Below, piece by piece: positions 5,355 to 39,333 of a stretch of 64,000 nt of DNA. The position numbers and the translations under genes are program-made. Location: sequence record ON470615.2, one strand, 5' to 3'. The notes under the pieces were generated by a model, which worked only from the letters and a program-made list of their open reading frames with translations, did no database searches and was not told where the DNA came from. The stretch is from Escherichia phage vB_EcoM-673R5. Numbering within the stretch: the stretch's first letter is position 1; every line of letters begins with the position of its first letter.

Positions 5355-6386
5355 ATGTCCAATTTACTGACCGTACACCAAAATTTGCCTGCATTACCGG
5401 TCGATGCAACGAGTGATGAGGTTCGCAAGAACCTGATGGACATGTTCAGGGATCGCCAGGCGTTTTCTGAGCATACCTGGAAAATGCTTCTGTCCGTTTG
5501 CCGGTCGTGGGCGGCATGGTGCAAGTTGAATAACCGGAAATGGTTTCCCGCAGAACCTGAAGATGTTCGCGATTATCTTCTATATCTTCAGGCGCGCGGT
5601 CTGGCAGTAAAAACTATCCAGCAACATTTGGGCCAGCTAAACATGCTTCATCGTCGGTCCGGGCTGCCACGACCAAGTGACAGTAATGCTGTTTCACTGG
5701 TCATGCGACGGATCCGAAAAGAAAACGTTGATGCCGGTGAACGTGCAAAACAGGCACTGGCGTTCGAACGCACTGATTTCGACCAGGTTCGTTCACTCAT
5801 GGAAAATAGCGATCGCTGCCAGGATATACGTAATCTGGCATTTCTGGGGATTGCTTATAACACCCTATTACGTATAGCCGAAATTGCCAGGATCAGGGTT
5901 AAAGATATCTCACGTACTGACGGTGGGAGAATGTTAATCCATATTGGCAGAACGAAAACGCTGGTTAGCACCGCAGGTGTAGAGAAGGCACTTAGCCTGG
6001 GGGTAACTAAACTGGTCGAGCGATGGATTTCTGTCTCTGGTGTGGCTGATGATCCGAATAACTACTTGTTTTGCCGTGTCAGAAAAAATGGTGTTGCCGC
6101 GCCATCTGCCACCAGCCAGCTATCAACTCGCGCCCTGGAAGGGATTTTTGAAGCAACTCATCGATTGATTTACGGCGCTAAGGATGACTCTGGTCAGAGA
6201 TACCTGGCCTGGTCTGGACACAGTGCCCGTGTCGGAGCCGCGCGAGATATGGCCCGCGCCGGAGTTTCAATACCGGAGATCATGCAAGCTGGTGGCTGGA
6301 CCAACGTAAATATTGTCATGAACTATATCCGTAACCTGGATAGTGAAACGGGGGCAATGGTGCGCCTGCTGGAAGATGGCGATTAG
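5355..6386 (+). CDS. cre: Cre tyrosine site-specific recombinase
   Basis: 343-aa ORF starting MSNLLTVHQNLPALPVDATSDEVRKNLMDMFRDRQAFSEHTWKMLLSVCRSWAAWCKLNNRKWFPAEPEDVRDYLLYLQARGLAV; adjacent to loxP. Confidence 0.97.
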   Translation: MSNLLTVHQNLPALPVDATSDEVRKNLMDMFRDRQAFSEHTWKMLLSVCRSWAAWCKLNNRKWFPAEPEDVRDYLLYLQARGLAVKTIQQHLGQLNMLHRRSGLPRPSDSNAVSLVMRRIRKENVDAGERAKQALAFERTDFDQVRSLMENSDRCQDIRNLAFLGIAYNTLLRIAEIARIRVKDISRTDGGRMLIHIGRTKTLVSTAGVEKALSLGVTKLVERWISVSGVADDPNNYLFCRVRKNGVAAPSATSQLSTRALEGIFEATHRLIYGAKDDSGQRYLAWSGHSARVGAARDMARAGVSIPEIMQAGGWTNVNIVMNYIRNLDSETGAMVRLLEDGD

Positions 6387-6404
6387 CCGTTCATTTGCGC
6401 TTGA

Positions 6405-6421
6405 TTGCTCTAATCATTTGA
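6405..6421 (+). promoter_or_regulatory. C1 operator
   Basis: ATTGCTCTAATCATTTG. Confidence 0.5.
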
Positions 6422-6436
6422 TATTTATGGTGACAC

Positions 6437-6748
6437 ATGCGGAAGGATTTCAAAATAGACGGAAAATATGTGGTGCTGTCTGTAAGCTCTCAAATTCAGT
6501 CACCATCTGTCATTGTCACCGTAAAGTTGAGCGATAGGATGCCTGATATCGACTCGATATCTGTTGCGTTCCCCGTTAAAAGTATGCGGAGTGCTGAACA
6601 TTTTGTGATGAATGCAACGGAGGAGGAAGCGCGGCGCGGGCTTACTAGAGTGATGGCGGAATTTGGCGAACTCCTGGGTAAGGTAAACAATGCCCTTTCA
6701 ATCAGTTCAGCAAGATCCAAAGCGTTAACAGCTTCCATGATGAAATAA
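6437..6748 (+). CDS. hypothetical protein downstream of cre
   Basis: 103-aa ORF preceded by a C1 operator, followed by hairpin 6752-6771. Confidence 0.4.
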   Translation: MRKDFKIDGKYVVLSVSSQIQSPSVIVTVKLSDRMPDIDSISVAFPVKSMRSAEHFVMNATEEEARRGLTRVMAEFGELLGKVNNALSISSARSKALTASMMK

Positions 6749-6751
6749 AAA

Positions 6752-6771
6752 AGCCTGGCAAGGAGCCAGGC
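6752..6771. terminator. hairpin, putative terminator
   Basis: AGCCTGGC-aagga-GCCAGGCT with A-run 5' on plus strand (T-run on minus). Confidence 0.35.
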
Positions 6772-6879
6772 TGCACAAAAGAGCGGGTTTGTATTCCGCA
6801 TCCAATCAATCAAGAAGGAGTATAGCACACAGGTACTGAAGTGAAAAAATGTGATTCGCGATTAACAAAATATCTACCA

Positions 6880-6896
6880 TTGCTCTAATTGATTGC
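6880..6896 (+). promoter_or_regulatory. C1 operator upstream of ref
   Basis: ATTGCTCTAATTGATTG. Confidence 0.5.
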
Positions 6897-6991
6897 TATA
6901 ATTAAGCCGCAGTTTTTGTCAACTACGAAGACGTTGCCATTACTTAACTCCTTGACATCATTGGCGGCCATTAGGCCGCCTTTTTTGCCAT

Positions 6992-7548
6992 ATGAAAACA
7001 ATCGAACAAAAACTTGAACAGCGCCGCGAGTGGCAGAAGGCTGCCAGAGAACGAGCGATCGCTCGGCAACGGGAAAAGTTGGCTGACCCCGCTTGGCGAG
7101 AATCGCAATATCAGAAAATGCGGGATTCTATCGACCGCCGTATCGCTAAACAGAAAGAGCGCCCACCAGCCAGCAAAACGCGGAAAAGCGCGGTAAAAAT
7201 AAAATCTCGTGGCTTGAAGGGAGAACACCAACGGCGGAGGAACGGCGCATCGCCAATGCTCTTGGCGCTCTCCCTGCATTGCCTGCTACATGCATGGAGT
7301 AATATCTGAAGAGGTATCTCTGCACCATATCTCGGTCGTACCGCGCCGGGTTGTCACAAAAAGCAATTGCCCCTTTGTAGATGGCACCACCAGCATGCAG
7401 CACCGGCTGAAGTAAGAGAAAAATACCCTGGCTGGTCCCTGTTCATGCCGATGGTGTGGTTGGAGGCAAGAAAGAATTCACCTTGCTGAACAAGTCAGAG
7501 ATGGAGTTGCTGGCTGACGCCTATGAGATGGCAAACATCATGCACTAA
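6992..7548 (+). CDS. ref: Ref recombination-enhancement HNH endonuclease; several frameshifts
   Basis: N-terminus MKTIEQKLEQRREWQKAARERAIARQREKLADP...; C-terminal pieces ...EKYPWLVPVHADGVVGGKKEFTLLNKSEMELLADAYEMANIMH recoverable in other frames. Confidence 0.6.
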
Positions 7549-7583
7549 TAAATATATTATTTTTAATCTGAAATAATTGACAA

Positions 7584-7610
7584 CTGACAAGTGACTTCAG
7601 TCAGAATCAT
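7584..7610 (+). promoter_or_regulatory. putative Lpa-dependent late promoter
   Basis: ACAAGTGACT box followed by a -10-like element; same box recurs upstream of other late operons in this window. Confidence 0.35.
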
Positions 7611-7736
7611 CACATGCCCGGTACGGATGGATCCCTTTTCAAATATTCCATGGACGGCACAGTCTGAGTACCGGGCGCTACCTTCAGTTGTATTGCTAAG
7701 CCGCCGCTGGTGGCTTTTCTTTTTGTAGGGGGCGCT

Positions 7737-7988
7737 ATGGATAAGAAAATATGCGTTGTGTCGATGAGCGTCGGCAAACCGGCGTCAATGACTGCTGCAT
7801 GGATCAATAACGAGCTGATAATGGCTGAGCGGACCAGCTACCCTGAACGCCGCCGCGATATGGAACTCCAGCTGCTGCGCGAATTGCGAGAAAAAGAGGA
7901 AAAGGGTTTTATCGTGCTGGTGGAAGAGGAAAACAGCTTTATTACTGGTCGAGTTGGCCAGCGTGTAAGGTTGCGCGATCCTTCATGA
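7737..7988 (+). CDS. hypothetical 83-aa protein (P1 mat position)
   Basis: ORF downstream of late-promoter box; stop overlaps next start (ATGA at 7985-7988). Confidence 0.45.
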   Translation: MDKKICVVSMSVGKPASMTAAWINNELIMAERTSYPERRRDMELQLLRELREKEEKGFIVLVEEENSFITGRVGQRVRLRDPS

Positions 7989-8353
7989 ACGGCAGGCCGG
8001 TACTAATTGAGGCAATGCAGATTTATAAGGAGCTGGAACGCCAGAAAGCAATCAAGTTACCGCGCAAGGAATCCGGCAAATACATTCTCCACCAAAGCAT
8101 CTTCGATTCCGAACACGATAAAAAAGGCGATGAATTTTTCAACATCAACTGGAGCGAAATAACGACAGAGCATGTTCTGACGTTACTATGTTGCTTTGCG
8201 ACGGAATACAACAACGTTGCCAGCGCCGACTACATCAGGGCAATGGCTGGAGAAGTTGAGGCCCGCCAAGAACCATCGTTACTAAGTCCACTGATTAACA
8301 TAATTCTGGGCACCCAGATACTGGAACAAAAAAAGTGCCGAAAGGGGTATTAA
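7985..8353 (+). CDS. hypothetical 122-aa protein
   Basis: ORF translationally coupled to 7737-7988; no recognisable motif. Confidence 0.45.
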   Translation: MNGRPVLIEAMQIYKELERQKAIKLPRKESGKYILHQSIFDSEHDKKGDEFFNINWSEITTEHVLTLLCCFATEYNNVASADYIRAMAGEVEARQEPSLLSPLINIILGTQILEQKKCRKGY

Positions 8354-8469
8354 CAGGCAAGCATAATTATTTTTAACAATTACATACAGTAATTTTGTGG
8401 TTACATTCTCCATTGATTTTCTAACCGCTTTATCATTAGATGTAACAGCATGTAAATCATTTAAAATGG

Positions 8470-9578
8470 ATGAAAGCAATGGGGAATGAAGTTTATCAAA
8501 GTCAAAAATGCAAGTTGAAATATTCAAAATCTCAAATTGATAGGGCTGCTCAATTGATAAGGCACGGGTGTAGTGACGAAGAAAGGCAGCAATCTATTGA
8601 AATGATACAAAATTTCCGTGAGCTGCATCTTTATCCATTAATGCTCATGAAAAATCATTTAGCAAGAGCAGCTGCTAAGGTTGACAAGGACAAAAAGATT
8701 CTCGTTGCAAGAAGACTTAAGCGACTTTCTACCATAATAGATAAACTAGAGCGTCCTAGTCTTGATGGAGGCAGAACTAGCAATGCAATTAAATTAACAC
8801 GGATGCAGGACGTTGGCGGATGTAGGGCCATTGTCAGAAACTTAGACCAGTTGATACAGCTAAAGGAACGTCTTTTAAAAAGCAAATCTGTTCATAGGAT
8901 TGTTAAAGAGTATGATTATCTTACTCCCAAAGACAGCGGCTATAGTGGAATCCACCTTGCATACAGTTGCTTCGATCAGAAGAGGATCAATATCCGTGGC
9001 GAAAAACAAAGATTGAGATACAGTTAAGAACTCAATTGCAGCATGCTTGGGCTACCAGCCTTGAAATAATTGATACCCTTGAAGGTATCAAGCTGAAAAC
9101 TTCAAGTGAAGGGCATCCAGAATGGAGACGATTTTTCTATCTAGCCGGATGTCTTGTAGCGCACGACGAAAAAGCCTGCACTCTTGATGAGCTAGTTGTA
9201 TCTCAGTATGAAGGCGAGCTTAAAGAGCTGGAACGGACTTTATCTGTACGGAGGAAACTAAGCACATACACCATCGCCTTAAATTTAACTTCTGACGCGA
9301 ATTTGATTAAGAAGTTGCCAAAAAATCATAAGGGGCATTACTTAGTAACAATGAGAAATGCAGAAAACAAGCCCAATACAAAAAACAAAAAAATGTTCCT
9401 AGTGTCTGTTCGCGCATTTAAAACAAAAGAAGCAGATGAAGCCCTTGAGGCCTTAAATAAAGACGATTCTAATCCTAATGTATTGATATCTGTTCTCGTT
9501 GCTACAGATAACATTAAGTCACTAAAAAAGCCTACCCCAACTATTTTGGCTCAACAAACCAGTTTACAAAATTCTTAG
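8470..9578 (+). CDS. fused RelA/SpoT-domain toxin (toxSAS, CapRel-like); frame broken once in an A5 run near 9005
   Basis: ORFs 8470-9027 and 8967-9578 join to about 369 aa; RelA/SpoT synthetase motifs (DVGGCRAIV, GYSGIHLAY, EIQLRTQLQHAWA); AT-rich vs flanks. Confidence 0.65.
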
Positions 9579-29079: not shown

Positions 29080-30609
29080 TTTCTCGGTGCCAGCGCCCCC
29101 AGGAAACGCAATATTGGGGAAAGTTTTTGAAACTGAGTTTTCAGCATTACGCGGAACTCGTCTGGTGAGCTGGTGGCCAGCTCCAGAGCTTTTTGTGCAT
29201 ATTTGCCAAACGGACCATTAGTAAGTGTCTTAGCCAGGAAGTCGAAAGAATCCTCGCGAGGCAATAACTTCAGGTCGTACTCACTCATTTGCTGATCAGA
29301 AAGCGGGGTATCGTAAGTAGTAATGCCGTAGCGTGCATATTCATAATACGGGTCACCTTCATCAGGGCGCGGCAGAATTGCTTTGTTACCTTCAGGTATT
29401 GCGCCGGGGGCCGCCGGACGCATTTGCAGGGCATATCGATATGCACCTACAGAGACTTCTGGTTCAGGCGAAGAGCTACCGGTATCCTCCGCTGGTTCAG
29501 GTTCGACGTTTTCCGGTTTATGTTCTTCTGGTTGGACCAGGTATTCCGATACATTACCCGCTTTATAGGCTTTAAACAGCTTGCCGATCGCATCTGCCAT
29601 GTCCACACCCTGTATGGATTTAGCCTTGATCATGTATACGCTGCCATCCGGATCGGTTAACTGGATATACCCTTCGCCGCCCCCAATGAATTGCTTCATT
29701 GATGCACCATTACTGAGCGTCACTTCCCCGTCCATATGCATACGATTTTTGATACTGGCAAGGCGATCCGTCAGCGCGCGAGAGTGCCCACCAGTCATCC
29801 CCGCTGGAGCAATGGTATCGCGCCCACCAGTGCGATTGAGCTGATCAATCTCCGTCTGCAAACGCTCATTCTCTTCATAAAGAGAATCCGCTTCCGATGC
29901 AACAGCGTTAATTTTCTGCTCCAGATCTGCCTTCTGCCCTTCTACCGCTGCCACCTGATCCGCGAGGTCGCTCATGGCATCCTCTTTCTGGTCACTGTCA
30001 GCCTGTAGTTGGGTTATTTCATCAACAAGGGCTTTTTTCTTCTTCTGCGCACGCTGGAATTTTGCCGAGTTTTTCTCTGCAAGGTTGGCAAGTTTCATGG
30101 TGACCTGCGCCAGCGTCATATCACGTCCACTCATCGGAGCAACGGTGTGAGTAACGTCTTTTTATTCAGTAAGAACTGGAAAGCAACCAGCGTATCGCTA
30201 TTGGTGATCCGGTTTTCCGCTGTCGGGCTATGAAACAGAATGCTGATAGTCTGACCATCACTGAGCGGAATAATGGCTGGCAGGACCGGCAGCCCGTTAA
30301 CGTTCCGTGCCCGGCCAATTTCAGCACCGCCGATCGCGCGCGCGCCGCTCTGGGCCACATCCCCGTTTTATCACTCCCCGCAGAGATTCCGGTACCATTC
30401 AGCTTCTGGTTCAATGCCCGGACAAATGCCTGCATGGTCCGGTGTAACTGCAAACGAGTAGAACTAATCGCCTCCAGTAAATCCGTAGCACACCAGTGGA
30501 TCGGCGTGTCATAGAAGAACGTAGCCTCGATTTCCTCCAGGGTGTTGGATTCCGTCATCAGATAGCGGTCCTCACCGGCCATTAATGCGCGATATTCATC
30601 ATCAGTCAC
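29064..30609 (-). CDS. DarA-like internal head/antirestriction protein; frameshifted
   Basis: ORFs 30166-30609 and 29064-30134; coiled-coil-rich; position between hdf-like gene and ddr genes. Confidence 0.4.
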
Positions 30610-30675
30610 TGGCGGGGAAGCACGTCAAGCCCAGGCTTGATCGTCACCCCTTTATTGATATTGAACTGTTCCATG

Positions 30676-31287
30676 TTAATTTCCTGCTTTCAGTTGCTTA
30701 AGACGGCGTTTGAGTTCGCCATTTCGGGCCTTTTCGTTATTGAGTCGGCCTGTCTCCTTATCCAGCTTCGCCCGCAAATCAGTGATCTGCTGTTGATTGA
30801 AAGACACCGAGTTCTGCGCTGATTTATAAGCGGCAACCACCTGAGCATTCCGCTGTTTTGCCTCTTGCAGGCGCTGAAAGTTGGATTTTACTGCCGGTTT
30901 CTTGTCTACCGGATTGGCAACACGTTTCGCTTTGGCGATCAGTGATTTCTGGAATTTTGCGGAGTTTTTGCGGGCCGCTTGCCCCATGACGGTACCAAGC
31001 GTCTTGATATCCGGCGATTGAGCGTTAGGAATAGCTTTTCCATTCAGCCTCACAGACGATATATCGCCAGTATCGTTTACCTGTATGGCAAGAATTTGTC
31101 CGTCGTTAAGAACCAGCTTTGCGGTTTTAACTTTAACGCCATCTTTCGTTGTTGCGCGGTTGCTGGAGTCAACCTCAATTACCGTAACACCGGTTTTATT
31201 GATCGCCGCGATAAGGGATTTCAGCCCCTTTTCATTAACCTGGTCAAAATCGACCGTTGCATACTTATTTTTCGTCATCTGACACAT
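30676..31287 (-). CDS. Hdf-like protein
   Basis: 203-aa ORF upstream of darA-like gene in lysis/dar operon. Confidence 0.35.
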   Translation of the reverse strand: MCQMTKNKYATVDFDQVNEKGLKSLIAAINKTGVTVIEVDSSNRATTKDGVKVKTAKLVLNDGQILAIQVNDTGDISSVRLNGKAIPNAQSPDIKTLGTVMGQAARKNSAKFQKSLIAKAKRVANPVDKKPAVKSNFQRLQEAKQRNAQVVAAYKSAQNSVSFNQQQITDLRAKLDKETGRLNNEKARNGELKRRLKQLKAGN

Positions 31288-31700
31288 CCTGTGCGAGATT
31301 TATTACGTAACTTCTGCGGATTTGCTGAGTAACAGGGAAAATCCGATACAACGGGTTAATGAACGAGTCGCCATGCGTAACCATGACGTTGAAATGCCAC
31401 AGTCGCTCTCCTTTACCCATATATTCAGTGGGTATGTACAACCATTCACTGTTTTCGCCCTGTTCAGCCGACGTCAAACAACGTTGTTCGCCTTCAATCA
31501 CTGTCGTCGGCTTCTGAACATCGCGGATCAATATCTGACCGTTGCGCCGCGCAAAAACGGGAATTTAGACCGGTATTTGAACGGCACCCGGATGAAACCC
31601 GGTTTAATTTCCACATCACCAAGTTCTAAATGCGTGATGTCCTTGCGTTTTAGCAAATAGCGATCGGCTAAGGCTAACGCAAGAACGCATACACCCCAGC
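31265..31700 (-). CDS. membrane-anchored protein of lysis operon; frameshifted
   Basis: N-terminal piece MIGWGVCVLALALADRYLL... joins ORF 31265-31531. Confidence 0.3.
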
Positions 31701-31703
31701 CAA

Positions 31704-32033
31704 TCATTTCCCGCCTCCCTTTTTCACCAAACTTGTAAGAACATTCAGAATGCTATCGATATTCACTCGTTTCATCCCTGAAATCACCTCATGACCGTTA
31801 TTGCTGGCTATCGTTACCATTAAGTACGTAATGGATAACTCCCAGCCCTCGTGTTGCCCCAATAGGTACGCCACCGCGCCAGCTGTCACTGCAACAAAGA
31901 TCTCCGTAACCAATCCCAACAAATTGCCAGACTGGCGACCGTCTCGGACATCCATCAGGAACGTGCCTATCCCACCAATTACTGAAAGCAGGAGCGCAAT
32001 AGCAACTGGAGCTAATTCCTGTGTGTCAAGCAC
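31704..32033 (-). CDS. holin-like membrane protein (LydA-like)
   Basis: 109 aa with three hydrophobic helices and charged C-terminus; in lysis operon position. Confidence 0.45.
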   Translation of the reverse strand: MLDTQELAPVAIALLLSVIGGIGTFLMDVRDGRQSGNLLGLVTEIFVAVTAGAVAYLLGQHEGWELSITYLMVTIASNNGHEVISGMKRVNIDSILNVLTSLVKKGGGK

Positions 32034-32107
32034 AAGTTCCCTCCTACGTTGTCAGGAGGTAATGGTATGCAAAGTAACTTCTCAACCGGTTATGTTGCAT
32101 AAGAGAC

Positions 32108-32371
32108 TTACCTATTCAACCGACTTTTGGAACCTTCAATAATAAGCCTGCTATTGGCGCTGAAAATAAGAACCATGCAGCTCTGAAGGCTTTCATTCAT
32201 ATCCTTATATTCCGCGAGATACATGCCAATAAAGCCAGCAAGTACGGCGGAAATACATTCGGCCAGCAATTTCTTGCATGAAGACTCGTAACGGTTTTCA
32301 CACAGCCCACTCAAATACGAATACACCCCACCAAGAAGGGATAACATCACGATATGTACATAAAATGTCAT
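32108..32371 (-). CDS. small membrane protein, first gene of operon
   Basis: 87-aa ORF with two hydrophobic segments. Confidence 0.4.
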   Translation of the reverse strand: MTFYVHIVMLSLLGGVYSYLSGLCENRYESSCKKLLAECISAVLAGFIGMYLAEYKDMNESLQSCMVLIFSANSRLIIEGSKSRLNR

Positions 32372-32376
32372 TTTTT

Positions 32377-32398
32377 ACCTATACAACAGTAAGTTGAA
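32377..32398 (-). promoter_or_regulatory. putative late promoter of lysis/darA operon
   Basis: Minus strand CAACTTACT-gttg-TATAGG; resembles the box upstream of R-S-U. Confidence 0.3.
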
Positions 32399-32497
32399 CA
32401 ACATCTGAGAACGGTATGCACTTTGTGATTTCCACACACACTGGTTTTGTTAATTAAAACCTGTAGCTTGCAATAAATAACGATAGTGGGCAGAAAA

Positions 32498-32720
32498 TAT
32501 GCTAATAGGCTATGTACGCATATAGACAAATGAACAAAACACAGCTATGCAGTGAAAAGCACTTGAAAGCGCAGGATGTGAGCTAATTTTTGCGAATAAG
32601 GCGAGCAGCAAAAGGCTGGGCACCCTGGGTTAAAAAGGTTCTGCGTATGCTTTCCAGAGGTGATACCCTAGTCTCGGGCTAGGGACAACATTTCGAGGAC
32701 AGTTTTCATTAGCGGTCAGC
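32498..32720 (+). pseudogene. relic of a second Hin/Cin-family serine invertase (N-terminal fragment, multiple stops)
   Basis: Reads MLIGYVRI*..TNEQNTAMQ*KALESAGCELIFANKASSKRLG..GDTLVS across three frames, paralleling Cin MQIGYIRVSTNDQNTDLQRNALNCAGCELIF. Confidence 0.5.
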
Positions 32721-32804
32721 AGGCGCTAGATACATCGAATTGATGTGCCGCGCGATAAATGTACCTATTCTATCAAGATAAATTACACCGACGCGGCATT
32801 AGAA

Positions 32805-33385
32805 TTACAGCTCAGATTGAGTTTGGCGCTTCTCTACAGGATGATAACGATAAATCGTCGATACACCGATATCGTAAATAATTGCCAACTGTTTCCTGCT
32901 GTAGCCATTTTCGATCAACCTCGCTATTTGCTCATGTTGTTCTTTTGTCAACTTCGGGCGACGTCCGCCAATGCGTCCCTGTTCGCGTGCAGCTGCCAGT
33001 CCGGCCAGTGTTCTCTCAACAATTAATTCACGTTCCATTTCTGCTAAAGCCCCCATGACGTGAAAAAGAAACGCCCCATGGGTGTTGATGTGTCAATACT
33101 GTCTGTCAGACTACGGAAATTAACACCTTTTTCCCGCAACTCCTCTATAAGCGTGATAAGGTGTTTCATACTTCTGCCAAGCCTATCCAGCTTCCAGACA
33201 ACCAGCGTATCTCCTTCTGATAACGTTCTGAGCAGCTTTTTCAAGCCTGGTCTGGCTGACTTTGTTCCGCTTATTTTATCTTCAAAAATCAGTTCACATC
33301 CTGCGCAGTTCAGTGCATTTCTTTGTAAATCTGTGTTTTGGTCATTTGTTGACACACGAATGTAGCCAATTTGCATGAAAAACAA
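32805..33385 (-). CDS. cin: Cin-family serine DNA invertase; one frameshift near 33050
   Basis: MQIGYIRVSTNDQNTDLQ...GDTLVVWKLDRLGRS catalytic domain plus C-terminal HTH (SRKQLAIIYDIGVSTIYRY); ORFs 33044-33385 and 32805-33056. Confidence 0.8.
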
Positions 33386-33435
33386 CCTCTTTGTTTAGTT
33401 AAAAATACATCGTTGGTATAGGTAGGGATTAAGAC

Positions 33436-33457
33436 TAAAACGTTGGTTTGGGGAAGG
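33436..33457 (+). repeat. cix-like crossover site 1
   Basis: TAAAACGTTGGTTTGGGGAAGG; imperfect dyad around central TT. Confidence 0.5.
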
Positions 33458-33875
33458 CTCTGCACTGCCCGTTGGCGTGCCCGTTCCGTGGCCATCAGCC
33501 ACACCTCCAACGGGGTGGCTGAAATGCAATGGCGCAGCATTTTCTTCTGAAAAGTACCCAAATCTGGCAAAGGTTTACCCCACTAATAAATTGCCGGATC
33601 TACGGGGCGAATTTATTCGTGGCTGGGATGACGGACGAGGTGTGGACAATGGGCGAGCATTATTAAGCAGCCAAGAGGCTACAAACTTTTCTCAGTGTGC
33701 CGGAAATATAGGCAATGGTGCGGGGCACGCAATTAATTTTCATGATGGCATCGTCGGAAATCAGCCAGGATTTTCACGATTTAATTTCACCAGTAACTCT
33801 GTAGGTGATGGTATAAATTTTGTTGCTGTCAGGCCGCGAAATATCGCATTTAATTACATCGTAAGGGCGGCATAA
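33458..33875 (+). CDS. tail-fibre variable C-terminal cassette Sv-a (promoterless)
   Basis: GEGSALPVGVPVPWPSATPPTGWLKCNGAAFSSEKYPNLAK...RPRNIAFNYIVRAA; stop abuts next site. Confidence 0.5.
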
Positions 33876-33893
33876 AAACGTTGGTTTGGGGGA
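33872..33893 (+). repeat. cix-like crossover site 2
   Basis: AAAAACGTTGGTTTGGGGGAAGG. Confidence 0.5.
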
Positions 33894-34366
33894 AGGCTCT
33901 GCATTGCCTGTTGGCGTACCTGTTCCGTGGCCCTCAGCCACACCTCCAACGGGGTGGCTGAAATGCAATGGTGCAGCATTTTCTTCTGAAAAGTACCCAA
34001 ATCTGGCAAAGGCTTATCCCACCAATAAATTACCGGATTTACGGGAGAATTTATTCGCGGCTGGGATGATGGGCGCGGGTGGATGCGGGCCTACGGGGTC
34101 GTGCTTTATTGAGCATTCAGACAGGAATGCTGGAAAAGCATCGACATATTGTTGTAGCCAATGATGGTTACGACACAAAGATGAATGGGAGCTGGCGACA
34201 ATTTTCAAAAAACATACACACAAGGATGGGGACTTGATGCCACAAATACAGGAGGGAGTCTGATCCCATCACCGACACTTCATTCACGAGGAGTATCGGT
34301 AATACTGGCGGGAGTGAAACCCGTCCACGAAATATCGCATTTAATTATATCGTAAGGGCGGCATAA
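33894..34366 (+). CDS. tail-fibre variable cassette Sv-b; frameshifted
   Basis: Same conserved N-block; ends ...GGSETRPRNIAFNYIVRAA; indel in a GGG run near 34045. Confidence 0.45.
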
Positions 34367-34384
34367 AAACGTTGGTTTGGGAGA
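34363..34384 (+). repeat. cix-like crossover site 3
   Basis: AAAAACGTTGGTTTGGGAGAAGG. Confidence 0.5.
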
Positions 34385-34854
34385 AGGCTCTGCATTACCT
34401 GTTGGTGTCCCTGTTCCGTGGCCTTCAGCCACACCTCCAACGGGGTGGCTGAAATGCAATGGTGCAGCATTTTCTTCTGAAAAGTACCCAAATCTGGCAA
34501 AGGCTTACCCGACAAATAAATTGCCTGATTTACGTGGTGAGTTCATTCGTGGCTGGGATGACGGGCGCGGGATTGATCCGGGGTCGCTCTATTTTAAGCG
34601 AGCAAGGATATGCAACGGAGGATCATGCTCACGGATTACCGTCAAAATCAACCGTAGCAACTGACAGCTCAATTAATTTCTACTTTGACGAGGCATGGGC
34701 TACTAGTGGTAATACGGGAGTTATCAGATGGGGGAACACAAGCGATGCAGGATTGCCAGCCCCTAATTATGGAACTTTTAAAACATATAAACAGTCCGTA
34801 GCTAATTTAGGTACTGCTGGCTTAGAAACCCGCCCTCGTAATAGCCACATTTAA
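34385..34854 (+). CDS. tail-fibre variable cassette Sv-c; frameshifted
   Basis: ORFs 34377-34664 and 34459-34854; ends ...LETRPRNSHI, followed by degenerate site remnant. Confidence 0.45.
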
Positions 34855-34902
34855 TTATATTGTGAGGGCGGATTATATCAACTGGCTGTAGAAAGTTGTT
34901 TT

Positions 34903-35522
34903 TCAGGCCAGTTGAGATACCCAAATGGTTAAATCCATCGCGTTCAGCTCGTCTATATAATCTAGCACGGAGTTAAGCTGCGTGGTTTCTGCCTGCGTCA
35001 ACTTCCGTCCAGCCCGTAATTTCAACTGAATCAGACTAATGGAATCCATCGCAGTATCAATCAATGACTGACGTTTTGTTTCTGCTGTACTCCCTCGTGA
35101 ATGAAGTGTCGGTGATGGGATCAATCTACAGCTGCACTATGTTGAGCCTCAGTATCAACCACCCATTTCTCTCCATCCCATTTGTCGTATGGTGTTAGCG
35201 GGGCGATAGTGGTTGTATTTTCCGGATAGTCGCCCCAACACCGTGATTTCTTCGGGATTCCCTGTGTCAATGCTATAGACAGTTTCGCCACGATGATCTG
35301 GCACATACTCCCATGAACTTAAATCCTCTGAACGGAGAATCGCATAACCTGCTTTATGTGAACTGGAGCATCAAACAAGAATGTGCCGGAATACCAACGA
35401 ATAACAGCAAGATATTCAGTTGATGCAGAAATATATTCCCGATTACCACCATCATAGTTATAAACGATAATGTTTCCTGCCTGTATGGCTATAAGTTCGC
35501 TATTTAATATCGCATTATCCAT
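34903..35522 (-). CDS. U: tail-fibre assembly chaperone U (Tfa family); frameshifted
   Basis: Tfa-like ...KWDGEKWVVDTEAQHSAAVD and C-terminus ...LIQLKLRAGRKLTQAETTQLNSVLDYIDELNAMDLTIW; three ORF pieces. Confidence 0.6.
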
Positions 35523-35524
35523 TA

Positions 35525-35967
35525 TGCTGCTCTCACAATATAATTGAAGGCATGTTACGTGGGCGGGTTTCATTCCCCCAGATAACTCCGTTCTGTATTG
35601 ACTGGTAAATTTACCATTAATCGCTCCTTCTTGGACGGCGTTATCTGTCGACAACAGGCTATCCCCCCTCTGTCATTTGGCACCAATACCGTGTTATCCC
35701 ACGCGTCCCATGACCGAATATTATGATAATGACTTCCTGTTAACCACCCCTGTATGCTTAAGATGACCCTTCCCGCATCCACACCGCGCCCATCATCCCA
35801 ACCACGGATAAACTCACCGCGTAAATCAGGTAATTTTAACGTTGGGTAAACCTTTGCCAGATTTGGGTACTTTTCAGAAGAAAATGCTGCGCCATTGCAT
35901 TTCAGCCACCCCGTTGGAGGTGTGGCTGATGGCCACGGAACGGGCACGCCAACGGGCAGTGCAGAGC
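35525..35967 (-). CDS. tail-fibre variable cassette Sv-d
   Basis: MPVPWPSATPPTGWLKCNGAAFSSEKYPNLAKVYPTLKLPDLRGEFIRGWDDGRGVD...; directly upstream of U. Confidence 0.45.
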
Positions 35968-35990
35968 CTTCCCCAAACCAACGTTTTCAT
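35968..35990 (-). repeat. cix-like crossover site 4
   Basis: Minus strand GAAAACGTTGGTTTGGGGAAGG. Confidence 0.5.
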
Positions 35991-36009
35991 GCCGCCCTTA
36001 CGATATAAT

Positions 36010-38833
36010 TAAACGCATATGTTACGAGGACGAATGGTTACATAATTAACCCCATCACCTCGTGAAGGCCCTAAATGAAAAACGGGAAAATCCTGGTTGG
36101 TAGAAACAATTTGGTCATAGTTATTGATTGAATGACCAGACCCAATGTCGAAATTACCTCCGTAATGAGAAAAACTTTACCATCCTGCCCTGAAAGCTTA
36201 AAATAGACGTCCCGCATCAATCCCGCGCCCATCATCCCAGCCACGGATAAATTCACCGCGTAAATCCGGTAATTTATTGGTGGGGTAAGCCTTTGCCAGA
36301 TTTGGGTACTTTTCAGAAGAAAATGCTGCTCCATTACATTTCAGCCAGCCCGTTGGAGGTGTTTCTGAGGGCCACGGAACGGGCACACCAACAGGCAGTG
36401 CAGAGCCTTCCCCAAACCAAGGTAATTAAGAACGCTCTGAATACTGGGCTTACTAAGAATTGCACGTCCAACACTTGTCAGTGCAGTTAACGCGGCACGA
36501 TCAACCCCTGTGAAATAAGGGAGTTTATCTGCTGCGGTAGCTAGTGCCGCTAGAGCAGTGAGCGTAGCGTCTGCCGCTTGCTTTCCATTAGCCAAATCAT
36601 ATGCAGCCTTGACAGCTTTCGGTGTAGCGGCCAGCACTTCAGACGTGCTGTTAGTGGCACTACTGAGCTGAGTGATGCCTTTCGCTGTCAATGAAGCTGT
36701 TGGCACACCAGTGATCTGATTCGGGGATGTGTATGACTGGATGGTGCCTTTCCGGCTGCTAGATCGTATGCAGCTTTAACTGCTTTTGGCGTTGCAGCTA
36801 ATGTTTCAGAAGTGCTGTTGGTGTCGCTACTGAGCTGAACTATCCCTTTTTGTGTCGTGGTTGCATCCTGGGCTGTATACTTCCCGTTAGCCAGGTCATA
36901 TGCAGCCTTGACAGCTTTCGGTGTGGCGGCCAGCACTTCAGACGTGCTGTTAGTGGCACTACTGAGCTGAGTGATGCCTTTCGCTGTCAATGAAGCTGTT
37001 GGCACACCAGTGATCTGATTCAGGGATGTGTATGACTGGATGGTGCCTTTCCGGCTGCTAGATCGTATGCAGCTTTAACCGCTTTTGGCGTTGCAGCTAA
37101 TGTTTCAGAAGTGCTGTTGGTGTCGCTACTGAGCTGAACTATCCCTTTTTGTGTCGTGGTTGCATCCTGGGCTGTATACTTCCCGTTAGCCAGGTCATAT
37201 GCAGCCTTGACAGCTTTCGGTGTGGCGGCCAGCACTTCAGACGTGCTGTTAGTGGCACTACTGAGCTGAGTGATGCCTTTCGCTGTCAATGAAGCTGTTG
37301 GCACACCAGTAATCTGATTCCAGGGATGTGTATGACTGGATGGTGCTTTTTCGGCTGCTAGATCGTATGCAGCTTTAACCGCTTTTGGCGTTGCAGCTAA
37401 TGTTTCAGAAGTGCTGTTGGTGTCGCTACTGAGCTGAACTATCCCTTTTTGTGTCGTGGTTGCATCCTGGGCTGTATACTTCCCGTTAGCCAGGTCATAT
37501 GCAGCCTTGACAGCTTTCGGTGTGGCGGCCAGCACTTCAGACGTGCTGTTAGTGGCACTACTGAGCTGAGTGATGCCTTTCGCTGTCAATGAAGCTGTTG
37601 GCACACCAGTGATCTGATTCCAGGGATGTGTATGACTGGATGGTGCCTTTCCGGCTGCTAGATCGTATGCAGCTTTAACCGCTTTTGGCGTTGCAGCTAA
37701 TGTTTCAGAAGTGCTGTTGGTGTCGCTACTGAGCTGAACTATCCCTTTTTGTGTCGTGGTTGCATCCTGGGCTGTATACTTCCCGTTAGCCAGGTCATAT
37801 GCAGCCTTGACAGCTTTCGGTGTGGCGGCCAGCACTTCAGACGTGCTGTTAGTGGCACTACTGAGCTGAGTGATGCCTTTCGCTGTCAATGAAGCTGTTG
37901 GCACACCAGTGATCTGATTCAGGGATGTGTATGACTGGATGGTGCCTTTCCGGCTGCTAGATCGTATGCAGCTTTAACCGCTTTTGGCGTTGCAGCTAAT
38001 GTTTCAGAAGTGCTGTTGGTGTCGCTACTGAGCTGAACTATCCCTTTTTGTGTCGTGGTTGCATCCTGGGCTGTATACTTCCCGTTAGCCAGGTCATATG
38101 CAGCCTTGACAGCTTTCGGTGTGGCGGCCAGCACTTCGGACGTACTGTTAGTGGCACTACTGAGCTGAACTAATCCCTTTTGCGTTGTGCTTGCATCCTG
38201 CGCCGTATACTTGCTTTTCGCCAGATCGTAGGCTTTTTTAACTGCCAGCGAACTCGCAGCAACATCACTTCTGGTACTGGTTACAGAGTCTGAAATATCA
38301 ATGCCGATCGTGCGGTTGATACGCTCGGATGTATCAATCATCTCTTGAGTAATGGTAGATACGCCAGCAGGGATATTCACCGTACAAACCAGCAGTTCCC
38401 CATCACCTAACTGATATGAATCGGTATAGGTTCTGGCAACAAATTCAGCTGCATGAATATGTGACGCGGTATTCACCTGATAGGTATCTTCTCCAAGAAG
38501 GTATCTTCCCTTCAGCACAATTGCATATTTCTTGCCTGCGTTAAGTGCAAGAGAGATATCCTTACGATGCTGAATAGTTACCTGGTAGAATTCACCAATA
38601 TCCACTGACGCCGCGCCAGCGGTTTTATCTCCATCCACTGAGGTGATTAACAGGTTCATCCCACCGCCAGGCTTAGGCAAGAAACCAGCATAAAATCCCG
38701 GGTCAACAATTCCCCTGAATTTTCGGTTTAGAGCGGCTGACAGATATGGTTCGTGGTATTGCACATCAGCCACCAGAGCCAACGACTCGGGTGATGGGTA
38801 AGTAACCGATGTAACAACTGTAACGTCATTCAT
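36010..38833 (-). CDS. S: tail fibre protein S (constant part plus currently joined Sv-e cassette); several frameshifts in repeats
   Basis: Starts MNDVTVVTSVTYPSPESLALVADVQYHEPYL; contains 100-aa tandem repeats; joins cassette at site 5; ORFs 37919-38920, 37020-37904, 36688-37005, 36341-36706, 36198-36386. Confidence 0.7.
36408..36430 (-). repeat. cix-like crossover site 5 (Sc/Sv junction)
   Basis: Minus strand TTACCTTGGTTTGGGGAAGG. Confidence 0.5.
36575..38250 (-). repeat. tandem 300-bp coding repeats (about 5 copies) inside S
   Basis: Unit ...GTGATCTGATTC(C)AGGGATGTGTATGACTGGATGGTGCC... recurs at 36710, 37005, 37305, 37605, 37905; encodes repeated TASLTAKGITQLSSATNSTSEVLAATPKAVKAAYDLA motif. 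Confidence 0.75.
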
Positions 38834-39307: not shown

Positions 39308-39333
39308 CATTGTAAGATAAGTAACTTGTCACC
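39308..39333 (-). promoter_or_regulatory. putative late promoter of R-S-U operon
   Basis: Minus strand GGTGACAAGTTACT-tatct-TACAAT. Confidence 0.35.

Follow-up and report, generated by a model that had tools for sequence, protein, structure and literature searches.

A probable p15B-type Min multiple-inversion system at the tail-fiber locus of the P1-family phage-plasmid vB_EcoM-673R5

The tail-fiber gene S of Escherichia phage vB_EcoM-673R5 (sequence record ON470615.2) adjoins a cluster of inverted and direct cassettes and a gene for a serine DNA invertase. The locus occupies positions 32,805 to 38,833 of the 64,000-nucleotide stretch that was analyzed here, which is referred to as the window. 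Our analysis indicates, at a probability of about 0.9, that this locus is a multiple-inversion system of the p15B Min type carried by a P1-family phage-plasmid, with five crossover sites that head five alternative ends of the S protein. The p15B Min system was described between 1990 and 1992 by Sandmeier, Iida and Arber, and the locus is already known in kind. A first-pass annotation of the window, made from the sequence alone, had proposed a multi-cassette invertible tail-fiber locus resembling p15B Min, an observation that turned out to be correct and well interpreted.

Results

Crossover sites and cassettes

Repeat finding over positions 31000-38500 identified a block of ~200-230 bp that was present five times at pairwise identities of 87-93% (direct families D2 and D4, inverted pairs I1-I6). 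Three copies were located on the plus strand, starting at ~33437, 33875 and 34366, and two on the minus strand, ending at ~35987 and ~36425. This self-comparison confirmed the five site-bearing blocks of about 200 bp, three plus and two minus, that had been described in the first-pass annotation. The site core AAACGTTGGTTTGGG was matched exactly four times and once with two mismatches (TTACCTTGGTTTGGG), the latter at the junction with the constant part of S (Sc). Only these five core matches occurred within the whole window, compared to a chance expectation of 0.73, and none of 100 shuffled sequences reached this number.

The 26-bp sites (Table 1; sequences are written in the reading direction of the cassette headed by each site) possess a TT core and a conserved right half, GGTTTGGGGGAA, and are present in inverted orientations. 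These features fit the Din-family criterion of two imperfect 12-bp half-sites that flank a non-palindromic 2-bp core. The five sites also closely match those of E. coli prophage invertases and the Mu/P1/e14/p15B consensus (PMC4134206). Site 5, at which S meets its present cassette, encodes ...NYLGL/GEGS... and occupies the same position within S as P1 cixR; its left half is unlike that of the other sites and consists of S constant-region sequence.

From left to right, the locus is composed of the invertase gene, site 1, cassette A, site 2, cassette B, site 3, cassette C, tfa, cassette D, site 4, cassette E, site 5 and Sc. The cassettes comprise 142-165 aa overall. Conservation is seen in the first ~76 aa, which form the collar domain, and in the 13 C-terminal aa (RPRNIAFNYIVRAA). 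Variation is confined to the central ~50-75 aa, where each of the five cassettes has a different insert. The five distinct C-termini had been recognized before, but they had been taken to differ over some 140-160 aa, whereas just the middle part of each is variable. A Pfam domain search, here and below run on intact relatives of the window proteins, found the Phage Tail Collar domain in every cassette, with an E-value of 7e-15 for cassette A. In the single cassettes, the stop codon sits in the left half of the following site.

Cassettes C and D form, together with tfa, a double-ended segment of 1.6 kb. The tail-fiber assembly chaperone gene directly follows cassette D with an overlap of 1 nt, and no other cassette has a tfa gene behind it; the single U/tfa chaperone gene proposed earlier for this locus is confirmed at 34903-35520. 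The copy of an intact relative matched Caudo_TAP at 3e-30. Cassette E, which is now joined to S, had been singled out as the shortest one; with 142 aa for its intact version it is indeed among the shortest, but it is tied with cassette A.

Sc contains six tandem repeats of ~300 nt (36425-38221) that belong to Phage_fiber_2. It is preceded by gene R, and the LPs-R-S operon is 95-100% conserved compared to P1. The late promoter LPs upstream of R is presumed to drive the S-cassette(-tfa) operon.

Table 1. Features of the Min locus and its surroundings in the window. Half-sites are separated by the central TT.
Feature	Position	Strand	Remarks
P1-type cin remnant	32410..32673	+	promoter region and first ~177 nt; left edge of the Min substitution
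Min/Pin-type serine DNA invertase gene	32805..33376	-	190 aa once corrected; Resolvase and HTH_7
P1 cin recombinational (Fis) enhancer homologue	33282..33352	-	within the invertase gene, at its 5' end; distance to site 1 ~90-160 bp
Crossover site 1	33431..33456	+	AAGACTAAAACG TT GGTTTGGGG(G)AA; fixed invertase-side half and cassette alpha front
Cassette A (segment alpha)	33445..33875	+	142 aa; silent orientation; intact save G5 to G4 in the site
Crossover site 2	33869..33894	+	GGCATAAAAACG TT GGTTTGGGGGAA
Cassette B (segment gamma)	33883..34366	+	158 aa; silent
Crossover site 3	34360..34385	+	GGCATAAAAACG TT GGTTTGGGAGAA
Cassette C	34374..34875	+	165 aa; forms the left arm of double-ended segment epsilon and converges on tfa
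tfa/U-like tail-fiber assembly chaperone gene	34903..35520	-	single; 203 aa in relatives; Caudo_TAP
Cassette D	35520..35979	-	152 aa; right arm of segment epsilon
Crossover site 4	35968..35993	-	GGCATGAAAACG TT GGTTTGGGG(G)AA
Cassette E (segment beta)	35987..36418	-	142 aa; now joined to the S constant part
Crossover site 5	36407..36432	-	TTCTTAATTACC TT GGTTTGGGG(G)AA; Sc/cassette junction
Tail-fiber gene S constant part (Sc)	36421..38833	-	Phage_fiber_2 repeats
P1 late promoter LPs	39309..39327	-	upstream of R-S; 100% conserved

Segment order varies among near-identical plasmids

Six plasmids in PLSDB were 99.8-99.9% identical to window positions 1-25000. The Min regions of four of these sister plasmids (L003-L006, 99.9% identical over 25 kb; L003 is NZ_CP103764.1 and L004 is CP119117.1) were cut at the central TT of the sites, and the resulting pieces were compared. 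The segments alpha (439 bp), beta (439 bp), gamma (487 bp), delta (514 bp) and epsilon (1581 bp) were distinguished. Between the plasmids, four segment types were 100% identical and delta was 99.8-100% identical, and their order and orientation varied (>, rightward; <, leftward): beta> gamma> eps delta< gamma< beta< in L003, alpha> eps beta< delta< beta< gamma< in L004, alpha> beta> delta> eps' x< in L005 and alpha> gamma> delta> beta> eps in L006. The arrangement of the window is alpha> gamma> eps' beta<, which gives five sites and four segments as compared to six to seven sites in the relatives. Cassette A was 99.8% identical to segment 1 of L005 and L004. A single inversion with its endpoints at the Sc site and at the site in front of beta converts the order of L006 into that of the window, minus delta. 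A single fixed arrangement, or extra cassettes produced as sequencing duplications, had been named beforehand as findings that would speak against an invertible locus; what was found instead are the same segments in different signed orders on near-identical plasmids.

The points of exchange could be located from the same comparison. The delta front occurs behind two cassette ends, ...CATAAAAACG and ...CATGAAAACG, and the switch between them is confined to AAAACGTTGGTTT; the exchange points map within a 13-nt interval that contains the central TT. As the blocks differ by ~13% between cassettes and yet the segments are identical from center to center, the exchanges must have occurred in the shared core. 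The different legal orders on 99.9%-identical backbones strongly indicate site-specific inversion at the level of the lineage.

Legal orders follow from the polarity of the segments. Each single cassette possesses a 'front', formed by the right half-site, and a 'back'; in epsilon both ends are fronts, and the locus is bounded by a fixed back on either side. Since every junction must pair a back with a front, a legal order is made up of rightward singles, followed by epsilon in either orientation, followed by leftward singles, and all five observed arrangements, those of the four plasmids and that of the window, obey this rule. The number of isomers for n single cassettes equals n! x (n+1) x 2. 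For n = 4, the six-site form, this results in 240, the value that the literature gives for p15B Min (PMC2481393). The window, with n = 3, would have 48 isomers and five expressible tips; in the isomer represented by its sequence, S is joined to beta and has the same orientation as tfa.

Among the 99.9%-identical backbones, the length of Sc was 2415 nt in the window, 2148 nt in L004 and ~1517 nt in L003. As Sc differs in length between near-identical plasmids, the copy number of its repeats is either unstable or mis-assembled.

The invertase is of the Min/Pin type

The invertase matched the Pfam domains Resolvase (2e-51) and HTH_7 (3e-15), and the Gin structures 3uj3 and 4m6f were matched over the full length at 1e-91. 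As written, the gene is split into two open reading frames (ORFs) of 110 and 83 aa by a run of six T that is short by one T (A run at 33063-33067 on the plus strand), and this single-T deletion is the sole difference from WP_001165547.1. The intact protein, which is encoded on at least 1000 contigs, corresponds to the UniRef entry Q05517_ECOLX, 'DNA-invertase', which is presumably the entry of p15B Min. The recombinase had initially been called cin; it is actually of the Min/Pin type. The gene is only 70% identical to P1 cin at the nucleotide level, is oriented in the opposite direction and is transcribed away from the invertible segment. Site 1 is located 67 bp upstream of its start.

P1-type cin is present solely as a remnant that is 89.4% identical to P1 31570-31832. 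Close to the start of the invertase gene, the enhancer homologue (Table 1) is 84.7% identical to P1 31684-31754, a region overlapping the annotated 'enhancer of Cin-mediated C-segment inversion', and may thus act as a recombinational enhancer. The cin remnant includes another copy of the P1 enhancer (32526-32592; 89.6% identity), and the remnant and the 5' end of the invertase gene constitute an inverted repeat (I7). As the truncated cin remnant with its own enhancer copy adjoins the invertase gene, two enhancer-like sequences are present at the locus. A terminator-like hairpin (32785-32799, minus strand) is located directly after the stop codon of the invertase gene.

Orthology to Min of p15B

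The window is collinear with P1 (95%) over P1 27146-31836, a stretch that includes the promoter of cin and ends 177 nt into the gene. From P1 37095 onward, inside S, the two are collinear again, and window positions 32674-38086 in between represent a substitution. Sandmeier et al. (1992) reportedly described the Pin-like Min system of p15B as a substitution within a genome similar to P1. In the RefSeq record of P1, homology to the p15B 'locus ECP15BG' is noted for five blocks, at identities of 83, 89, 84, 99 and 96%, and at the same five blocks the window and P1 were 85 (83 ungapped), 89, 85, 99.5 and 96.5% identical. The boundaries relative to P1 and these identity values support the view that the locus is orthologous to p15B Min and that the likeness noticed earlier goes beyond mere resemblance. 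The locus agrees with p15B Min in every defining feature that could be tested. Other P1-like plasmids with a Min-type invertase have been described, with an amino acid identity of 98.5% to p15B Min, X62121, for the invertase of one such plasmid (PMC6906374).

Taken together, the locus would function as follows. Min, a Din-family serine invertase, would bind to the 26-bp crossover sites and would be assisted by Fis bound to the enhancer within the 5' end of its own gene. It would cut at the central TT with a 2-nt stagger and invert the DNA between any two oppositely oriented sites. The site would provide the first codons of a cassette, which continues with the collar domain, a variable, putatively receptor-binding insert and the conserved RPRNIAFNYIVRAA tail. 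As each site heads a cassette, the one located at the fixed site at the Sc end would be fused in frame to S. The resulting S-cassette fusion, expressed from LPs, would then set the host range.

Frameshifts and sequence defects

The first-pass annotation was right about the anatomy of the locus but had missed that the sequence as written contains frame breaks in the invertase gene (at 33063), in S (three), in tfa and in four of the five cassettes. S is cut into four ORFs by three 1-nt deletions (36723, 37021 and 37920), each of which is located at CATCCCTGGAAT / CCCTGG, with CATCCCTGGAAT containing a CCWGG site. In the window, tfa is broken into three pieces by several defects, and cassette B differs from its relatives by five 1-nt deletions and one 9-nt scramble. 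In the relatives, all sites are in frame and read ...NYLGL/GEGSALPVGVP...; in the window as written, the frame is kept in two of the five right half-sites only, with G4 where G5 is expected. This concerns sites 1, 4 and 5, which have G4 compared to G5, GGGAG or AGGGG in all relatives, and the frame between Sc and its cassette is broken.

Nearly all of the frame breaks are 1-nt deletions at homopolymers or CCWGG sites, and defects of the same type occur in the flanking regions. Such a pattern is expected of homopolymer- and methylation-sensitive sequencing. Comparison of the 4-kb left flank to L003 yielded one substitution and seven indels; all seven were 1-nt deletions in the window, six of them in runs of at least five. 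In this flank, 6 of 22 runs of at least five were undercalled, and so were three of the five runs of six. The flanks together had 10 defects in 7.5 kb aligned (0.13%), nine of which were single-base deletions in homopolymer runs, whereas the invertible segments had 35 in 3.0 kb aligned (1.16%), 16 of which were complex scrambles. The defect density was therefore ninefold greater within the invertible segments (Fisher p = 1e-11).

Cassette E was particularly affected. Its identity to true beta is 95%, with 12 gaps in the alignment. The conserved block is chimeric on a fine scale and reads gBBgBgBgBgggggg at the 15 positions that set true beta apart from all other cassettes (B, beta-specific; g, generic). 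Considered as a real allele, it found no match above 95.7% among the plasmids of PLSDB. Since an alternation on such a fine scale is what a column-wise consensus of mixed isomers would give, the sequenced population was probably a mixture of isomers. Gene conversion would not be expected to give such a pattern. We attribute the frameshifts to sequencing error, i.e., undercalls at homopolymers and Dcm motifs, together with a muddled consensus of coexisting isomers, and not to biology. The ninefold excess of defects and the chimeric consensus are indirect signs of isomers in the window's own sample.

Within tfa, 2 nt have given way to a patch of 36 nt (35088-35124) that exactly matches positions 34259-34294 of cassette gamma in inverted orientation. 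The patch has the correct CCC, at which the window's own gamma copy is undercalled, and it was absent from all 102 plasmids that matched its flanks. The patch may have been created artificially during assembly or polishing, or it may represent a templated insertion that is private to this sequence. The corresponding perfect 31-nt inverted repeat (34261-34291 / 35093-35123) was also considered as an adapter or a miniature mobile element, which was rejected as the gamma copy is native in all relatives.

Compared to near-identical plasmids, 1-nt deletions in and around the locus are located at 30159, 30361, 30614, 31529, 32610, 32632, 33063, 36723, 37021 and 37920. About 29 further ones are present within positions 1-25000, a stretch that is 29 nt shorter than in the 99.9%-identical relatives. 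Due to these systematic deletions many ORFs of the window appear split, such as a darA-like gene at 30614. According to the annotation of the relatives, positions 1-25000 encode an N-6 DNA methylase, an anti-phage dGTPase, a RelA/SpoT-domain protein, a TnpB/IS element and terminase and portal genes, and these annotated genes are accessory and defense cargo of the phage-plasmid.

Database records related to the locus include a 2,021-bp record in the 'complete' assembly of a sister strain (L018, NZ_CP142924.1) that consists of the Min segments epsilon and beta alone; the main plasmid of that strain (L019, NZ_CP142921.1) has a garbled Min region. Judged by its content, L018 looks like a leftover contig of an alternative isomer and not like a plasmid. 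Three further records of 2-3 kb (NZ_JBQJRS010000019.1, NZ_JBQJRT010000008.1 and NZ_JBQJRM010000005.1), known to us as matches only, are annotated as tail-fiber and tfa. Small leftover contigs that originate from isomer mixtures have been described for EC958 (PMC4134206).

Discussion

Alternative explanations

Several observations weigh against the interpretation of the locus as a p15B-type Min system. The invertase gene is frameshifted as written, and a promoter scan of the region from site 1 to the start codon detected no sigma-70-like promoter for it. The orthology to p15B (X62121) was deduced by an indirect, though specific, route via the P1 RefSeq annotation and secondary citations. The 514-bp delta cassette of L003-L006 is absent from the window and cannot have been removed by inversion alone; it could have been lost by deletion between direct sites, by homologous recombination or by collapse during assembly. 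Similarly, the seven-site plasmids L003 and L004 carry beta and/or gamma twice, and L003 is without alpha, for which inversion alone is insufficient; the duplicated segments may result from unequal exchange or represent an assembly artefact. Finally, the invertase allele with five instead of six T (T5) appears to be real elsewhere. The truncated 110-aa product is encoded on 42 public contigs. These include the noisy P1-like contigs L008 and L016, neither of which is the same record as the window (the window was not found in the RefSeq E. coli set either), and the GenBank phage vB_EcoM-813R1 has the same split invertase and the same broken S; however, the allele looks genuine in two P2-like prophages, L009 (GCA_012613865.1) and L010 (GCA_031439085.2), with locus coordinates of 6177-7936 and 8001-8599. 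The assemblies of these prophages show no breaks in other genes. Their loci share the first 105 residues of the window invertase and the T5 frameshift tail, resulting in the identical 110-aa product. The initial view of the invertase frameshift as a pure artefact was softened after the same allele had been found in these otherwise clean assemblies.

The locus might accordingly be regarded as a decayed and locked relic. On this view, the frameshifts of the invertase gene, of S and tfa and of the cassettes would be genuine, the order of the segments would no longer change and the locus would yield no functional fiber. Every component except cassette alpha is disrupted as written, and the natural occurrence of T5 in otherwise intact P2-like prophages as well as the split invertase of vB_EcoM-813R1 would agree with this. 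However, the same 1-nt homopolymer deletions affect conserved genes in the flanks, the 99.9%-identical backbones have an intact invertase and intact cassettes that are 100% identical to one another, and the column-by-column chimerism of cassette E is poorly explained by any mutational process. In addition, L009 and L010, both T5 and 99.98% identical, differ by a clean inversion of a 1.76-kb fiber segment with the exchange at the core, and hence the allele does not prevent inversion. In these prophages inversion is presumably supplied in trans by other resident invertases; alternatively, the finding suggests slippage at the T run. We therefore consider a relic to be very improbable. With regard to the invertase gene itself, the undercalling of three of the five left-flank runs of six makes an undercall much likelier than a real frameshift, and we regard it as very improbable that the T6 run (codons RFFFH) has truly lost one T in the window plasmid and that this represents a recurrent natural off-switch of Din-family invertases. 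If it were real, the shufflon would depend on other resident invertases that act in trans or on slippage at the T run.

The different arrangements might also have arisen by RecA-dependent homologous recombination between the ~200-bp blocks rather than by site-specific inversion. The length of the blocks (200-230 bp) and their identity of 87-93% would be in line with this, and the loss of delta and the duplicated segments of L003 and L004 require more than inversion. Nevertheless, the segments cut at TT are 100% identical whatever their neighbors are, in spite of the ~13% difference of the blocks between cassettes, and the exchange is limited to the 13-nt interval with the TT and occurred at the core in L009 and L010 as well, leaving RecA a very unlikely cause of the rearrangements. 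We find it hardly conceivable that a simple two-state segment was duplicated in the assembly and that the extra cassettes stem from this. The assembly is noisy in this region, and some related assemblies contain duplicated segments or leftover contigs, but the five cassettes have five different variable inserts and the same cassettes are present in many independent plasmids. Thus, a p15B-type Min system, read with the sequencing defects outlined above, remains the best explanation for the locus.

Implications for annotation and assembly

Knowledge of Min-type tail-fiber shufflons dates back to 1990, P1-like phage-plasmids of E. coli commonly carry them, and the present example adds little biology. 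Its value lies rather in the annotation of such regions: the 'hypothetical' and 'phage tail protein' fragments at this locus are silent cassettes of one gene, and the split ORFs are most likely sequencing artefacts. Invertible loci degrade the consensus of long reads and yield leftover contigs or duplicated segments in 'complete' assemblies, and the legal-order rule together with n! x (n+1) x 2 provides a quick validity check for assembled Min regions.

Comparison with known systems

Clustered inversions that choose the C-terminus of a surface adhesin or receptor-binding protein are also known from the R64 shufflon (Rci) and from bifidobacterial Rin (PMC2481393, PMC6109161). Those systems differ from the present locus in that they employ tyrosine recombinases and short asymmetric sites and function without a Fis enhancer, and the target of R64 is the pilus adhesin PilV and not a phage fiber.

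The two-state systems of P2-like prophages (EC958 Phi2; Pin of e14) are more closely related. They have near-identical sites, which in EC958 Phi2 are TCCTCAATTACC TT GGTTTAGGAGAA and GAGAGATAAACG TT GGTTTGGGGGAA, and a Phage_fiber_2 constant part combined with an invertible 3' part with a Collar domain (PMC4134206). However, there are only two such sites, and each alternative tip has its own tfa. The systems Cin of P1 and Gin of Mu have several features in common with the locus: the invertase is a serine recombinase of the Din family, the 26-bp sites have a 2-bp core and are placed at the same YLGL junction of S, a putative enhancer is located in the 5' part of the invertase gene of the window, where P1 has its enhancer, and a tfa/U chaperone gene is present within the invertible DNA. 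In contrast to the multiple sites of the window, P1 has two sites and two states; its Sv and Sv' of ~520 aa are unrelated to the window cassettes and each have their own U, whereas the window has a single tfa. Moreover, P1 cin faces the segment, with cixL overlapping its 3' end, and the window invertase gene faces away.

The closest likeness is to p15B Min. Both loci have the same genomic position and the same substitution boundaries relative to P1, and in both a Min/Pin-type invertase gene points away from the segment, with the 5' remnant of a P1-type cin left over. Both have multiple sites, each heading a short collar-domain cassette, and one double-ended segment. They differ in that the window has five sites and five tips compared to six and six in p15B, and in that the window copy is frameshifted as written.

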